A DNA stretch of 64,000 nt from an uncultured Chthonomonadaceae bacterium (GTDB lineage: Bacteria > Armatimonadota > Chthonomonadetes > Chthonomonadales > Chthonomonadaceae): the NCBI GenBank assembly GCA_963817895.1, contig CAWFQB010000012.1:12223-76222 (forward strand), given 5' to 3'. Both the position numbers and the translations under genes were made by a program. The notes under the pieces are model-generated. The model worked only from the letters and a program-made list of their open reading frames with translations, was not told the origin of the DNA and made no database searches. This document shows positions 52,695-63,110 of this stretch, one piece after another; positions within the stretch are counted from its first letter, which is position 1, and each line of letters begins with the position of its first letter.

Positions 52695-53874
52695 TCAAAA
52701 ACCATCGTTGATCCACATGGGCGGGCCGTCAAGCAGCCGCGCCAGTTGTTCAAAGGCTTGTTCGCTGTGGATGGTCAGGCGTTCGGCGCGGCGCAAGTCG
52801 GAAAGGGACGGCGTACCGAAATACGCCTGCGTCAATGCCTGAATATCCATTTCCATGTCGGGCTTATCACCGGTAGACGTGACCGTTGTTTGCCCCTCCT
52901 CAACGCTGATTCGCCACGCGCCCTCATTCCAACCCGCGTGTTTGTCTTCCACTGCCAGAACAAAATTTGCCTGTAAGGGGTTGAGCGGCTTCCACGTTTG
53001 GAACGCGCCGACAACATCCACGATACGCGCCATGAGGCAGCGGGCGCAGTTTGGTTTCCACATCCCAATGGTTTAGATGGGAATACAGCGTATCATCGGC
53101 GGGCGCGTTCCATGAGAATTTGTCAATCTGCATGTCATGGCGGCGCAACAGGCCAAGCAATCCCTGCTGCGCGCGGGCGGTCAAATAGATGAACTCGCGC
53201 AACCGCGTTTCTTCGCGCTTGCCGCCGTGATAGGTCAGATAGCCTTCCAGTTCGCCGTTTTGTTCATACACATACGTATAGAAATGCTCTTTGGGCGTAT
53301 CATCCAGCATGAGTTTCCATTCCATAGGCGTTCGCTTTAACATGCCGCGATACCGCGTTGCGAATTGGGCGTAGGTATCGGCAATCCTTTCGCGGTCATT
53401 CAGCGTTGCGGCGCGAACATTTTCCGTATACGGGGAGGGTTTCAGGATGCGCGAAGGCAGCGAGTAGCGGCGATTCAGCCCCACCCATTCATAGCCCAAC
53501 CCCCGGTAAAAGTCCCAGTGGAACGGTTCCAGAATAGAAACACACTGCCCGTTACGGCGCATCTGTTCCAGGCAGTAGCGGACGCCCCCGGAAGCGTAAC
53601 CTTTGCCCCGCGCTCCGGGCAGAACGGCCACGCCATTGATAGCGCCCATCGGCACAACTACATGCGGCCCGAAATGCAGGTTCATATTCACCAGCAGAAA
53701 CGTCGCCTGTAAGCCCGCCTCATCGAAAATGCCGTAAATCGCCTGACGCTCGCTGTTGTCCCGATCCCACTCCTTCCACTCGGACATGTCCCGCTTGCCA
53801 TGCTCAAACGCCTGCGACCACAAATAATACGCCCGCTCCAACTCCTCGCCCGCCAATTGCCGAATGTCCATCAT
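52695..53874 (-). CDS. Eis-like GNAT acetyltransferase with C-terminal SCP2 domain, frameshift near 53040
   Basis: INGVAVLPGARGKG, LEPF..FYRGLGY; MARIVDV..WNEG..MDIQALTQAYFG in second frame. Confidence 0.88.
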
Positions 53875-53878
53875 GCTC

Positions 53879-54871
53879 TCACTCTCCACTCTCCACTCTC
53901 CACTTTTCGTATATATCCGCGATTACGTCGTCAATGTCGGCGCGGCGGGTTTCCACGTCGGCGAGGCGCGTCTGCCGCGACGCCTGCTGTAATAAATCGG
54001 CGACGCTGACCTGCGTGGCGTCGAACGTATACTCGTGCCGTCCCGCTTCGCTGCCTGTCAGGGTCGCGTTGCGCAGAACCGGGGCCGCGTCACCCGCCGT
54101 TTCCAGTATCAGGGTTCGGCGGTCGGCAAACTCGGAACGCAGGCGGGCAAAGTCGCCATCATACGCGATTTTACCCTGCGCCACCATCACGATGCGCCCC
54201 GCAAGCTGTTCCAATTCCGACATGTCGTGGCTTGTCACCATGACCGTCATTTGCCGTTCCCGGTTGATGTCTTTGAGGAACCGCAGAATGTTGCGTTTGG
54301 CAAGCACGTCAAGACCGAGCGAGGGTTCATCCAGAAACAGAATCTCCGGCTCGTGCAGCAGCGCCAACCCTAAATCAGCCCTCATACGCTGACCCAAACT
54401 GAGTTCGCGCACAAGGCTGTTGAAAAACGGAGTCAGGTCGAGCAGTTCCTTTACCAGACGGGACATGCGCTCATACCGTTCGCGCGGAATGTCCCACACG
54501 ACGCGCTTCCATTCAAAACTCGCGGAAACCGGGTGGTCGCGCCACAATTCTGTGCGCTGCCCGAAAACAACGCCGATGCGCCCCACATACTGCTGCCGCT
54601 GCGTGGCCGGGTTCATGCCCAGCACTCGCACAGTTCCCGTATCCGGCGACAGCAATCCCGACAGCAGTTTTACGGTCGTGCTTTTGCCCGCGCCGTTCGG
54701 TCCGGCATACGCCACGATCTCGCCGCGCCCGATTTGCAGGTCAATGTTTTGCAGCGCGTGGACTTCTCGTATCTGAGGCCGCAGCAGCGACTTGACCACA
54801 TCCCCCAACTTTTCCGAACGCTGCTTCTGCCGGTATGTTTTGCTCACTTTTTTTAACTCGACTACGCTCAT
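53879..54871 (-). CDS. ABC transporter ATP-binding protein
   Basis: GPNGAGKS, LSLGQRMR, LFLDEP, SHD. Confidence 0.95.
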   Translation of the reverse strand: MSVVELKKVSKTYRQKQRSEKLGDVVKSLLRPQIREVHALQNIDLQIGRGEIVAYAGPNGAGKSTTVKLLSGLLSPDTGTVRVLGMNPATQRQQYVGRIGVVFGQRTELWRDHPVSASFEWKRVVWDIPRERYERMSRLVKELLDLTPFFNSLVRELSLGQRMRADLGLALLHEPEILFLDEPSLGLDVLAKRNILRFLKDINRERQMTVMVTSHDMSELEQLAGRIVMVAQGKIAYDGDFARLRSEFADRRTLILETAGDAAPVLRNATLTGSEAGRHEYTFDATQVSVADLLQQASRQTRLADVETRRADIDDVIADIYEKWRVESGE

Positions 54872-55800
54872 CCTCTATGTCCTAATTCACTGTACCGTTG
54901 TGAGCCGACGCGGGCGTAATGCTTTCGGCCCTGCTGAAAAACGAATGTGGCGAACAGGGTCAGCAACAGCGCGGCAAGTGGCGTGAGCAGTTGTTTGGCG
55001 GGCGCGTTTTCAAGGCCGAGCAAAAGGCGGCAGGGATACCACGCGACAAACCCGACGGGCAGCACAGTCAATAGTCCCCCTGCCATCAGTCCGCTCAAAC
55101 CGTCCAGCGGGTAGGGCTTCAGTTCGTTCATCAGGCGGGCGGTGGAACTGCTGATCTCTTCCGCCGAGCGGGGCGCCCAGAACGCCAGACTGCCCCAGAT
55201 AAACTGAAACGCCAGCATCACGACTGCGGAACACAGCAGGCTGAACAACAGTTTCAGCAGCCAGAGCGGATGCAATCCCATTGACAACTGCCGACCGGCC
55301 CACGCCATCATCGCCATTCCCGGCAGCAGCATCAGGGACGCGCTGAACGGCGCAAAGCCTTCCGTCAATAATCCCATCCAGATGGGCTGCGGCTGAATCA
55401 GCGAGTGGTCGAACTGCCCCCGTCCCAACCGTCGGCTGATGTGCGACACATTATAGTTGAAGCCAACATCTATGAGCGCGCCCACAACCGCCGAGTAGCC
55501 AAGCAGAAATACAATTTGCGCATGGCTCCAGATGCCGATTCCCGTGAACCGAATGGACAGCAGCCAGATGCTCGTAATCATCGCAATACCCATGACCGCG
55601 TCCGTGAGCATCCACAGCAGAAACAGCTTCATATCCCGCGTCACAAAAATCAAATCCAGACGCGCGTATAAGGCGTACAGGCGCAGCAGACGGCGCAAGG
55701 TAGTAAAGGAAAAAGGAGAAAGGAGAAAGGAGAAAGCAACGCTATCCGAAATTCTCTTTTTCCTTTTTCCTTTCTCCTTTTTCCTCTCCTCAACCTCCAT
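54868..55800 (-). CDS. ABC-2 family transporter permease (DUF990 type)
   Basis: Multi-TM; GQFDHSLIQP, LAFW, YPL, LPVGFVAWYP. Confidence 0.85.
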   Translation of the reverse strand: MEVEERKKEKGKRKKRISDSVAFSFLLSPFSFTTLRRLLRLYALYARLDLIFVTRDMKLFLLWMLTDAVMGIAMITSIWLLSIRFTGIGIWSHAQIVFLLGYSAVVGALIDVGFNYNVSHISRRLGRGQFDHSLIQPQPIWMGLLTEGFAPFSASLMLLPGMAMMAWAGRQLSMGLHPLWLLKLLFSLLCSAVVMLAFQFIWGSLAFWAPRSAEEISSSTARLMNELKPYPLDGLSGLMAGGLLTVLPVGFVAWYPCRLLLGLENAPAKQLLTPLAALLLTLFATFVFQQGRKHYARVGSQRYSELGHRG

Positions 55801-56581
55801 ACGACACCATCTTTTCCTTGCTGACGCGCCATAGCCACAGAGTCAGGGGCCAAAGGGCAGCGCACCAGAACGCTTGCAGGATTAAAAGCCGGAGTGGGTC
55901 GCCTGTACCCGTGTAGATGCGCAGGGGAGCCGAAGCCATGGAAGCGAACGGCAGCCAGCCGAAGATTTTGCCCAGGTTCCAGGGCAGAAGCGCAAGCGGA
56001 ATAAACGCGCCCGACAGCAGAGCGGCAATCGCCGCCCGCGCCCGCGTCATGGCGAACGGCGGAAATTGCAGGCCGATGCCGATACCGGTAAACAGAAAAT
56101 CCAATGCCAGTCCAACCCCGACGGCAAGCAACAGACTGGGCAGGAACAGCAGTCCCGAAGTCCAACTGGCGGGCTGAAGGCTGATGTGCATTAAGGGAGC
56201 CAGCAGCAGCAGGGGCAGGGAAAATGTCGCCAGATGAAACAGCCATTTGCCGCAGGCTTCGGCCGTAAACTGCCCGAATATGCTCAGGGGCTTGATAAAG
56301 CGCGTGGCAATCGTGCCATCCCAGAACGCATCGGACACATCAGTATACGCTTCCAGCAGTTCGGCAAACATCTCCGCCAGCAGCGAGTACGTCAACAGCA
56401 GGGGCAGGGTAAACCCGGAAACCGTTTCGCCATGCGGCAGCAGCAGTCGCCAGAGGGACAGCAGCACGGCCACGCGCATCAGCCGCAGCAGATAATCCAT
56501 CAAAAACAGGGGACTGTCGCCGATGTAACTTGTGGCCGACAGCAGGGCGGTTTTTGTATATTTATGCAGCCCAATCGCCAT
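55790..56581 (-). CDS. ABC-2 family transporter permease (DUF990 type)
   Basis: DGTIATRFIKP, LSGAFIPL, LPFASM..P, ends SYGG. Confidence 0.88.
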   Translation of the reverse strand: MAIGLHKYTKTALLSATSYIGDSPLFLMDYLLRLMRVAVLLSLWRLLLPHGETVSGFTLPLLLTYSLLAEMFAELLEAYTDVSDAFWDGTIATRFIKPLSIFGQFTAEACGKWLFHLATFSLPLLLLAPLMHISLQPASWTSGLLFLPSLLLAVGVGLALDFLFTGIGIGLQFPPFAMTRARAAIAALLSGAFIPLALLPWNLGKIFGWLPFASMASAPLRIYTGTGDPLRLLILQAFWCAALWPLTLWLWRVSKEKMVSYGG

Positions 56582-56636
56582 CCGAATCCGGTTCCGCTTT
56601 CAGCCAAAAATTTCGCGAAAAGAGCGCAAAATTTTC

Positions 56637-56665
56637 TTGACAAGTTTGCGCCAATCTGCGATAAT
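56637..56665 (+). promoter_or_regulatory. Sigma70-type promoter
   Basis: TTGACA-17 bp-GATAAT. Confidence 0.75.
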
Positions 56666-56696
56666 ATTATTGACAAAGAAGGAGGTGGTGACTAGC

Positions 56697-56732
56697 ATGG
56701 ATTATAGTCAACGAGGTGAGCAGGCGGGTTAG
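56697..56732 (+). CDS. Putative small peptide MDYSQRGEQAG
   Basis: AAGGAGGTG SD at 56679-56687, 9 nt before ATG; near-consensus promoter upstream; hairpin downstream. Confidence 0.55.
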   Translation: MDYSQRGEQAG

Positions 56733-56831
56733 CCTGTTTTAACCAGTTGCTCACGCGGCGCGAAAACATTGTTTAGCGCAGGTGTGAACTCAACAAGTGA
56801 TGAACAGGCTCTTGTCCTGTTCGCCTGCTGA

Positions 56832-56860
56832 AGCCCGGACGCGCTCGTCGCGTCCGGGCT
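56832..56860. terminator. Strong hairpin between the sORF and the convergent pilin gene
   Basis: 12-bp stem AGCCCGGACGCG/CGCGTCCGGGCT; U-tract weak. Confidence 0.6.
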
Positions 56861-56914
56861 ATAATTATGTCGCATAAAGTGGGGGATTTGCAAAGGGTGG
56901 GGAGAAAATAACCG

Positions 56915-57310
56915 CTATTTGTTGTCGTAGCCGGGTTCAAACGTACCCGCGCTCGAATCGGAACACGAGACGACAAACGCGCCGCCGTGCGGACCGGGAA
57001 CCGCGACGCTGTATGTTTCGCCATTGGGACCGATGGGAAGCGGGTTCAGGTCAGGCTCTTTGGCGGAAGTGGCAGGGCCACTGAAAACGGAATAACCCGC
57101 GCTCTGGTTCAGCACATACGCGGCCTGCACCGCTGTGGCGACGCTGTGCATGTTGACGCGATTGGTTTTCTTGTGGCTGTCGGCAACCGCGCTGATGTAA
57201 AGCGGGAGGGCGACCGCCATGAGAATAGACAAAATCAGGGTAACGACGAGCAACTCAACAAGTGTAAAGCCGCGAAGATGGCGGCGGTTATAGATAATTG
57301 TATGTGCCAT
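56915..57310 (-). CDS. Type IV pilin-like protein
   Basis: RG^FTLVELLVV prepilin cleavage motif; 131 aa. Confidence 0.88.
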   Translation of the reverse strand: MAHTIIYNRRHLRGFTLVELLVVTLILSILMAVALPLYISAVADSHKKTNRVNMHSVATAVQAAYVLNQSAGYSVFSGPATSAKEPDLNPLPIGPNGETYSVAVPGPHGGAFVVSCSDSSAGTFEPGYDNK

Positions 57311-58079
57311 TGTGCGGAACTCCCTTCAATCGGACAAGCAACGTCGTTCAGACGCCGCTACTGTCCCGAATGTTCATCTTTCTTTGGTAAGGACAGAGGA
57401 AAATAGCGCCAAAATTGAGAAGGAATACGGAATACTCTGCGAACCGGGTATGCCGATGTGCAGGAGGGCAGCCGTCTTTCAGTCCGCGTATTATTATGGC
57501 CTGATGGTGGCGCTATGGGACAAAACAAGGGCGACGAGGGCGATCTTTATTTTGCCCTCGCGTTTGAGATCGCGCTTTCGCATCGGTATCTGGTAGCCCT
57601 GATACGAGTCGTGGGCGACAGCGCCTTTCGCCTGGCCGCGAAAGGCTGTCCGGGGGAAAGCATCCAGTTGCTTTCCGCGATGCAGTCTCTACAGGAAAAG
57701 ATGAATTTTCGCCCTACCCCCGGCTTTGCAGCGCGCGTCCGGGAACACCTGCGCGCTGGAAGCCTCGCTTGGAAGGGAAACGTTCGACCGCCACTGGCAG
57801 ACCGGGCTGTACACACCCCTCGAAGTCCTCATTCCCGCAGCGCTCGAGCATACAAACCACCTCTCAAAAATTACCTGATTTTATCCCGTATTTGCTTCTG
57901 CCCCGGCTCTTTTTCTCCCTTTCAATCCCGTTTATCGCGCGTTGCAAACACACTTAACGCCGAACACGCTAAATTGCTAATGCCTGGCTAATGCCGCTCT
58001 GCTATACTCTCCCCAATAGTCACCCATCAGCGCGAACGCCGCCTGATTATCTACCCGGCTGTTTCAAGGAGAAATTACG

Positions 58080-63038: not shown

Positions 63039-63110
63039 TTGGCGGTATTGGATTTGAACCAATGACCTCTTCCGTGTCAAGGAAGCGCTCTACCCCTGAG
63101 CCAACCGCCA
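63039..63110 (-). tRNA. tRNA-Val(GAC)
   Basis: Cloverleaf: acceptor TGGCGGT/ACCGCCA, anticodon arm CTTCC-TTGACAC-GGAAG, T-loop TTCAAAT; CCA not encoded. Confidence 0.95.

Follow-up and report, generated by a model that had tools for sequence, protein, structure and literature searches.

A small RNA gene of Armatimonadota with an 11-codon reading frame: a candidate free-standing switch coupled to translation

Why should a bacterium place a near-consensus promoter and a very strong ribosome-binding site in front of a reading frame of eleven codons, with no larger gene behind it? The question is raised by a locus on the plus strand (positions 56637-56868) of a 64,000-nucleotide stretch of DNA from an uncultured Chthonomonadaceae bacterium (assembly GCA_963817895.1, contig CAWFQB010000012.1), a stretch that we call the window throughout. 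An original prediction, made from the letters of the window, had noticed there a promoter, a Shine-Dalgarno (SD) site, an open reading frame (ORF) reading MDYSQRGEQAG, a downstream region able to fold back on this ORF and a 12-bp hairpin, and had proposed either a micro-peptide that is acetylated and exported or a structured RNA that senses translation. Following up this prediction by comparative analysis, we found that the second proposal fits the data and that the exported peptide is unsupported. Our preferred reading, to which we give an even chance of being right, is that the locus, hereafter the element, is a stand-alone, Armatimonadota-specific small RNA gene whose product would work as a free-standing RNA switch coupled to translation. 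The features of the element are listed below, with lengths in nucleotides (nt).

56637-56665, plus strand: sigma-70 type promoter, with TTGACA at 56637-56642, a 17-nt spacer and TG-n-GATAAT, matching 11 of 12 consensus positions
56660-56665, plus strand: -10 hexamer GATAAT of this promoter, with TG upstream of the hexamer
56672-56868, plus strand: predicted transcript of about 197 nt, from the putative start (GAC) through the tail past the terminator
56678-56689, plus strand: very strong SD site (SD1), for which 12 contiguous pairs with the 3' end of 16S rRNA are possible, 2 of them wobble pairs
56689-56710, plus strand: small hairpin of the minimum-energy fold (56689-56694 with 56705-56710), with the ATG in its loop
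56697-56732, plus strand: mini-ORF of 11 codons (MDYSQRGEQAG), from the ATG at 56697 to the TAG at 56730-56732
56713-56719, plus strand: internal tract GAGGTGA (SD2), complementary to the 16S anti-SD over 7 nt
56714-56728, plus strand: 5' strands of helices P1a (56714-56723) and P1b (56724-56728), formed by ORF codons 6-11
56731-56739, plus strand: 5' strand of helix P2, predicted by RNAalifold and covering the last two bases of the stop codon
56740-56741, plus strand: 5' side (UA) of an invariant internal loop, facing N-A-U at 56799-56801 and flanked by invariant U and GAA runs
56742-56798, plus strand: variable-length apical domain, which in relatives ranges from a tetraloop hairpin up to about 100 nt
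56802-56826, plus strand: 3' strand of the rod, comprising the partners of P2 (56802-56810), of P1b (56811-56815) and of P1a (56817-56826, with an anti-SD-like tract)
56832-56868, plus strand: terminator-like 12-bp hairpin (56832-56843 with 56849-56860) and its tail ATAATTAT

Conservation and expression signals

Firstly, we assessed how the element is distributed. It is present once in the genome of the window, and BLAST found it in relatives from three families of the same order. From an alignment of 33 order-level copies (A1) we built a covariance model (R1), which matches the window with 162 bits over 56672-56868 and finds the element at E ≤ 0.001 in 61 of the 68 genomes of the order (42 of 45 among the high-quality genomes). 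Sixty of these genomes have one match and one has two. The sole genome with two copies (G064, on contigs C38 and C2) gives 141.5 and 130.9 bits for them. Across Armatimonadota, R1 matches 57 of 151 sampled genomes at E ≤ 0.01, with strong matches in at least seven further families of the phylum and none in several others; these misses may reflect limited sensitivity, since R1 was built from one order. A strict pattern written in IUPAC (International Union of Pure and Applied Chemistry) letters and run against one genome per species of bacteria and archaea returned 84 stretches. Among the 80 titles listed for these, 64 name Armatimonadota taxa (counted under Armatimonadota, Armatimonadetes, Chthonomonadales, Chthonomonadaceae, Chthonomonas and Fimbriimonadaceae), 14 say only 'bacterium' and two name others (Puia and a Bryobacterales metagenome-assembled genome). 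A second alignment (A2) holds 98 matches with 86 distinct sequences, and it is to these 86 that the counts below refer unless another number is given. Judged from these comparisons, the element is a real, conserved gene of Armatimonadota. A repeat or mobile element had also been considered, and was rejected because the element is single-copy. Rfam 15 gave no match on the element at E ≤ 1 in the region 55500-58000 of the window, nor at E ≤ 0.1 in 12 diverse loci. Little study has been devoted to Armatimonadota; in the portions of the literature accessible to us, on small, structured or noncoding RNA of Armatimonadetes/Armatimonadota and on the transcriptomics of Chthonomonas calidirosea, there is no description of such an RNA, nor any small-RNA biology for the phylum.

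Secondly, we analysed the signals that would drive expression. The TTGACA-17-GATAAT promoter is indeed present, and the region 56000-57500 contains 4 promoter-like sites, against 0.6 ± 0.8 in shuffles. At least 10 of the 12 consensus positions are matched in 71 of the 86 distinct loci, the spacer is 17 nt long in 64 of them, and the distance from the end of the -10 hexamer to SD1 is 15-17 nt, likewise in 64. From the position of this promoter we infer a transcript start near 56672; conservation in the alignment starts at the same place, with GAC. The full SD site announced by the original prediction (AAGGAGGTG at 56679-56687) lies within SD1, whose motif GG.GGTGGT is invariant in A1. The 3' end of the 16S rRNA of the window's genome is the usual GGATCACCTCCTTTCT, hence the 12 contiguous pairs that SD1 could form with it, as derived by hand from the two sequences. 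At the other end of the element, the predicted 12-bp hairpin was found again, and a strong hairpin stands at the terminator position in 33 of 33 order-level sequences; a simple terminator scan did not list it because there are too few T in the tail. The element measures from 123 to 228 nt among the distinct sequences. The strong promoter and ribosome-binding site would predict high expression.

Three further observations concern the ends of the putative transcript. A second promoter-like site at 56670-56698 (TTGACA, 17 nt, TAGCAT), matching 10 of 12 positions, overlaps the 5' leader together with the ATG and is probably a chance match, since its first hexamer belongs to the conserved GAC start region. 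The tail is TATAAT-like at 56861-56866 (CTATAAT) and is conserved in most of the window's family despite differing downstream genes; it could be part of the RNA 3' end or a -10 box. Finally, four sequencing runs were compared with the locus and gave only contigs; two of these libraries, from one study (X18 and X19), labelled metatranscriptomic and flagged 'probably DNA', contain short contigs that match the element from 56673/56674 to 56819/56838, variable domain included, with 2 other letters each (95-99% band). Upstream, these contigs turn into unrelated sequence exactly at the inferred transcript start, and we draw no conclusion from them.

The mini-ORF and the covarying rod

Thirdly, we analysed the mini-ORF. 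Its start is invariant: the ATG is present in 86 of 86 distinct sequences, as is the SD core, and the two are separated by 6-10 nt among homologues. The frame is 11 codons long in 79 sequences, 10 in five and longer in two weak matches; the five 10-codon sequences come from one genus and have lost exactly one codon, in frame and upstream of the conserved core. As for the stop, the triplet is TAG in 63 sequences, TAA in 19 and TGA in 4, and no other triplet occurs. All four sequences with G at the second stop position have A at the third, indicating that TGG is avoided. Selection for a start, a frame and a stop would produce such patterns, and the ORF read in the original prediction, from the ATG at 56697 to the TAG, is the one to which they apply. 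A longer in-frame ORF, from a GTG at 56532 to 56732, was rejected because it spans the promoter and an upstream region that is not conserved.

The length of the ORF is conserved but its sequence is not. Pooled over codons 2-11, the ratio of non-synonymous to synonymous change (pN/pS) is 0.78, and by this measure purifying selection does not act on the amino-acid sequence of the mini-ORF. All 79 sequences have AGT as codon 4 and CAA as codon 5, with zero synonymous changes, and codons 6 and 7 are CGA and GGT in 58 and 62 of the 79; codons 2, 3 and 9-11 are variable at all three positions, the first and second as much as the third. In one family of the same order, CGG AGG stands instead of CGA GGT, and SQRR or SQPE is read via a 1-nt shift; this family retains the nucleotide motif GGAGG/GAGG at the same place and the frame length. 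Because the residues change (RR for RG) and the motif stays, what selection appears to favour is the nucleotide sequence and translation as such, as it does in regulatory leader ORFs.

The second half of the ORF is also one strand of a predicted helix. A 199-nt stretch covering the element folds at -88 kcal/mol, against -62 ± 4.6 in dinucleotide shuffles (z -5.67; 0 of 200 as good), and RNAalifold on A1 predicted P1b, P2 and the terminator. We counted pairs on A2 for a continuous rod (Model A: P1a 56714-56723/56817-56826, P1b 56724-56728/56811-56815, P2 56731-56739/56802-56810). In this model 76.5% of cells are paired, whereas column shuffles give 70.3 ± 0.4 and none of 500 reaches the observed value; the covariation score of 0.193 compares with a maximum of 0.099 for controls with slid 3' partners, although shuffle controls overstate significance here because the alignment is partly structure-fitted and its sequences are related. 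Taken helix by helix, P1a is paired in 72% of cells with both-side changes at 7 of 10 pairs, P1b in 74% with both-side changes at 6 pairs (all of its pairs, as counted), and P2 in 92% with both-side changes at 5 of 8. These pair counts speak for P1a, P1b and P2; they are supportive and fall short of proof. One of the two pairings proposed in the original prediction, AGCCTGTT at 56731-56738 with AACAGGCT at 56803-56810, exists, is supported by covariation and corresponds to P2. For the other, a basal helix joining 56719-56726 to 56822-56829 (Model B), the complementarity exists, but only 63% of cells are paired, compared with 72% and 74% for the P1a and P1b registers. The small hairpin around the ATG is paired in 88% of cells, with both-side changes at only 1 of its 6 pairs, which makes it a weak candidate. 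A pairing of the 3' tail with ORF codons 2-4, which are complementary in the window, was dropped because the tail is unchanged where the ORF changes.

The 3' strand of P2 may have a second partner. In an alternative local hairpin (Model C), 56802-56808 would pair with 56816-56822; 83% of cells are paired, two pairs covary and the hairpin occurs in three compensated versions. When the 3' segment is folded by itself, its median z against mononucleotide shuffles is -2.05, with 37 of 69 sequences below -2 (17 of the 86 were dropped, their aligned segment being shorter than 25 nt). In the window, the free fold of -88 kcal/mol compares with -57 kcal/mol when the 5' end, up to 12 nt past the stop, is held unpaired.

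Two further features are conserved. The first, SD2, has its end 7 nt upstream of the last sense codon and 10 nt upstream of the stop. Its distance to the last sense codon is constant in the sequences inspected, the 10-codon genus included, and the interval from CAA to the stop is without length variation. In the rod, SD2 pairs with the anti-SD-like 3' tract, which varies by lineage and in one group reads like the 16S anti-SD; since the partner varies and SD2 is constant, SD2 seems to be constrained by more than its intramolecular partner. The second feature is the internal loop, in whose region A1 shows GTTTTA.C and GT.ATGA without variation. The internal-loop module GUUUUAGC/AUGAAC occurs twice in the rod of one genus from another family (L063-L070), where the ORF has 10 codons, the second copy being inverted. 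Invariance and duplication together point to a recognition motif. The inverted duplicate creates a pseudo-symmetry that would suit a dimeric binder. Known motifs were also considered: the loop was compared by hand with the consensus features of K-turn (kink-turn), tetraloop-receptor, loop-E and hammerhead, and these readings were set aside because of mismatches in register or in core bases. A scan of the rRNA operon region found nothing that corresponds to the conserved loop motifs, and rRNA mimicry was rejected.

A proposed switch coupled to translation

How might such an RNA work? In the switch that we favour, the near-consensus promoter would yield a transcript with a long SD and an ATG near its 5' end, SD1 would load a ribosome, and the fixed 11-codon frame would be read. 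Since codons 6-11 and the stop form the 5' strand of the helix, a ribosome that reaches the stop would have to melt P1a, P1b, P2 and the internal loop. With the ribosome at the stop, SD2 would lie behind the P site at a distance like that of initiation, and in most lineages the 3' strand, once released, could refold as the local hairpin; once free of the ribosome, the RNA would return to the much more stable rod. It would then alternate between a closed, untranslated rod and an open, ribosome-occupied form, in the manner of a leader-peptide switch without a downstream gene, for which the act of translation would matter and the peptide would not. The output would most likely be exerted in trans, via a binder of the internal loop in the closed form or via the released 3' strand in the open form, and the candidate readers of the two states would be an internal-loop protein, an RNase or base-pairing by the released strand. 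That the RNA would sense translation, as the original prediction had suggested, fits the comparative data, in which the SD, the ATG, the frame length and the stop are conserved and the 3' half of the ORF lies in a covarying helix.

Several points weigh against this switch. It gives no account of the invariance of the internal loop, nor of that of AGTCAAC. For the alternative hairpin, a control slid by one column scores the same covariation (0.120) as Model C itself. This hairpin, moreover, is not predicted in the genus with 10 codons and a duplicated module, in the L055-L062 group and in a few members of the window's family, so that the switch may not be universal. When the sequences were folded one at a time, pairing of the SD2 tract reached 80% or more in only 51 of the 86, and the ATG was left fully unpaired in 54. 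The alignment from which covariation was read was partly fitted to the structure, and its sequences are related. Lastly, the sequencing runs that carry the locus were looked up, and none is on record as RNA.

The proposed switch can be compared with known systems. Leader-peptide attenuators (trp-type; erm, cat and cmlA leaders) share with the element a strong SD, a very short ORF whose translation opens a helix, a strand with two alternative partners and a terminator hairpin after it; correspondingly, codons 6-11 and the stop are predicted to lie in P1 and P2, and the 3' strand to have an alternative partner. Unlike attenuators, the element has no regulated downstream gene and no repeated regulatory codons, its terminator seems constitutive, and it is stand-alone, single-copy and kept across the phylum with changing neighbours. 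Dual-function small RNAs (SR1/SR1P, RNAIII/hld, SgrS/SgrT) likewise combine their own promoter and terminator with a structured RNA and a small ORF that has its own SD, but the ORF of the element has only 11 codons, is a strand of the main helix and, with the pN/pS given above, lacks the purifying selection on residues that would mark this class. The near-perfect extended SD, which lies within about 10 nt of the 5' end, resembles the STAB-SD of Bacillus (cryIIIA, aprE and ermC leaders), and ribosome binding at SD1 could protect the RNA in the same way; STAB-SD sequences are parts of long mRNAs, whereas the SD of the element is followed by a conserved ATG, frame and stop. The site in prfB, the gene of release factor 2 (RF2), also has an in-ORF tract complementary to the anti-SD at a fixed distance before a stop. 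In the element, however, the spacing of 7 nt to the last sense codon is initiation-like and differs from the short frameshifting spacing, no extended frame follows, and TAG, TAA and TGA are all used, without restriction to a single release factor.

The locus is a clean candidate for a new RNA family, being phylum-wide, single-copy and covarying, and since gene finders skip an 11-codon frame, the family is a ready test case for mini-ORF annotation. If the switch is real, it would make the leader-peptide principle, in which the position of a ribosome sets the fold of an RNA, free-standing and presumably trans-acting, and would represent a compact natural sensor of translation.

Part of the same evidence could be explained without translation. 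The RNA could be an untranslated structured molecule, a sponge for a protein or the 30S subunit or a base-pairing small RNA, with the anti-SD-complementary tracts as binding sites and the ORF as an incidental feature. Conserved blocks that are invariant at the nucleotide level, an invariant internal loop present twice in one genus, two tracts able to pair with the 3' end of 16S rRNA and a single-copy, phylum-wide presence like that of housekeeping RNAs would all suit such a molecule. We nevertheless consider it unlikely, given that the ATG never changes, that the stop triplet varies only among the three stops, that the single change in frame length is a whole codon, that the SD-ATG spacing stays in the working range and that no Rfam family matches.

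Gene neighbourhood and the remaining explanations

A second competitor of the translation-coupled switch takes the peptide as the product, and here the neighbouring genes matter. Those of the window are listed below; the divergent ABC (ATP-binding cassette) and GNAT genes noted by the original prediction are all there, and, as it had stated, no plus-strand gene follows the element.

55790-56581, minus strand: PF06182 permease (ABC-2, former DUF990), divergent, upstream
54868-55800, minus strand: second PF06182 permease (ABC-2, former DUF990), divergent, upstream
53879-54871, minus strand: ABC ATPase, divergent, upstream
52924-53889, minus strand: Eis-like GNAT, divergent, upstream
56915-57310, minus strand: prepilin-type (N_methyl) ORF, convergent, the next gene downstream

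We surveyed the neighbourhood by a Pfam scan of 77 flanking ORFs at 40 loci. The window and six other loci of its family (L009, L011, L014, L021, L025 and L029) have an ABC-2 permease, its ATPase or an Eis-like GNAT in a divergent upstream position; this makes 7 of 22 loci of the family with the window counted, which is a lower bound because some upstream ORFs have no Pfam match. No such neighbour occurs at the 18 loci examined outside the family, in other families or orders, and their flanks differ. In one sister family, a convergent gene with a CarboxypepD_reg domain ends 1-20 nt from the element in six loci (five of them Pfam-scanned); other flanks carry GreA, MraZ, ferrochelatase, IMP dehydrogenase or seryl-tRNA synthetase. 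With 7 of 22 inside the family and 0 of 18 outside, the ABC/GNAT link is a matter of local gene order and not a conserved functional module. Among the loci examined, the gene link holds in part of the window's family only.

The product could still be the 11-residue peptide itself (a signal, a cofactor precursor, the substrate of a pathway for ribosomally synthesized and post-translationally modified peptides, or a small regulator), with the helix only setting stability or translation rate. Start, stop and frame length are conserved with all three stops in use, S and Q occur in 79 of 79 sequences, R in 69 and G in 66, the strong expression signals suit a peptide made in quantity, and the Eis-like GNAT and ABC-2 exporter are near it in the window and six loci of the same family. 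We regard this explanation as quite unlikely. The pN/pS of 0.78 and the absence of any synonymous change in AGT and CAA among 79 sequences speak against selection on residues, as does the family that reads SQRR or SQPE via a 1-nt shift and keeps GGAGG; no modifying enzyme or exporter is conserved as a neighbour across families, the peptide has no signal sequence, and its last residue varies. The more specific proposal of a peptide acetylated and exported by its neighbours is unsupported in view of the same pN/pS and of gene order, with ABC/GNAT genes upstream in 6 of the 21 other loci of the family and in 0 of 18 elsewhere. A parallel could be drawn with microcin C7, whose mccA has 7 codons and which comes with a GNAT immunity domain and an exporter; the window shares with it a tiny ORF, a strong SD, a hairpin and a nearby GNAT and exporter. 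Unlike MccA, however, the encoded peptide ends in Asn in just 2 of 79 homologues and its neighbourhood is not conserved, and no MccB-type adenylating enzyme was found among the 11 window ORFs scanned against Pfam.

A variant in which translation matters differently, and which we think improbable, is that the RNA imitates an mRNA so as to capture ribosomes and park them. The 12-bp SD would load a ribosome, which by the fixed 11-codon frame would reach the stop just when the SD2 tract lies 7 nt behind the P site, so that the terminating ribosome would be tethered; in the idle RNA, the intramolecular anti-SD mimic would mask the SD2 tract. If this were true, an abundant RNA would serve as a gauge, buffer or reservoir of free ribosomes across the phylum, a translation governor of a kind not described so far.

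That the element acts in cis on a neighbouring gene, as a leader or attenuator of the divergent ABC-2/GNAT operon or of a downstream gene reached by read-through, is in our view very improbable. The order of short ORF, alternative helices and terminator is leader-like, and a same-strand gene does follow in a few loci, 170-360 nt after the element: GreA in L058, L060 and L061, from two other families (Pfam-confirmed in the first two; in L061 an ORF that agrees in place and length suggests it), and MraZ in L017 and L020, from the window's family. These GreA and MraZ counts are too small to call an association. The ABC/GNAT operon, being divergent, is not controllable by attenuation; the next gene is convergent in the window and in the six sister-family loci, where a same-strand regulated gene with a terminator/antiterminator would be expected of an attenuator; flanking genes differ by family; and hand inspection found no convincing antiterminator or other pairing that competes with the terminator.

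Finally, a divergent copy of a classical housekeeping RNA is almost certainly not the answer: the element is single-copy, rod-shaped and strongly promoted, and the Rfam 6S model, which finds 6S in only 5 of 14 control genomes, has no match in the window's genome (G000), but the signal recognition particle (SRP) RNA of that genome lies elsewhere (contig C4, 183016-183116, 48.6 bits), as does its transfer-messenger RNA (tmRNA; contig C14, 622321-622672), a canonical 6S (RF00013, 63.9 bits) coexists with the element in another genome (G199), no pairing joins the first 40 nt to the 3' end, and the apical domain ranges from about 0 to about 100 nt. The identities 6S, SRP RNA and tmRNA were accordingly rejected, on the other copies found elsewhere and on the unlike pairing of the ends.

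Two other sequences of the window deserve mention. An 80-nt near-perfect palindrome (55705-55787) lies where the two ABC-2 permease ORFs meet, within the annotated start of the second; one arm is made of purine-rich GGAGAAA-like repeats and the other of their complement. The palindrome belongs to a dispersed repeat, found in at least five other places of the genome at E < 1e-8, and gives spurious microRNA matches in Rfam. Further downstream, a tRNA-Val (GAC) is encoded on the minus strand at 63039-63110.

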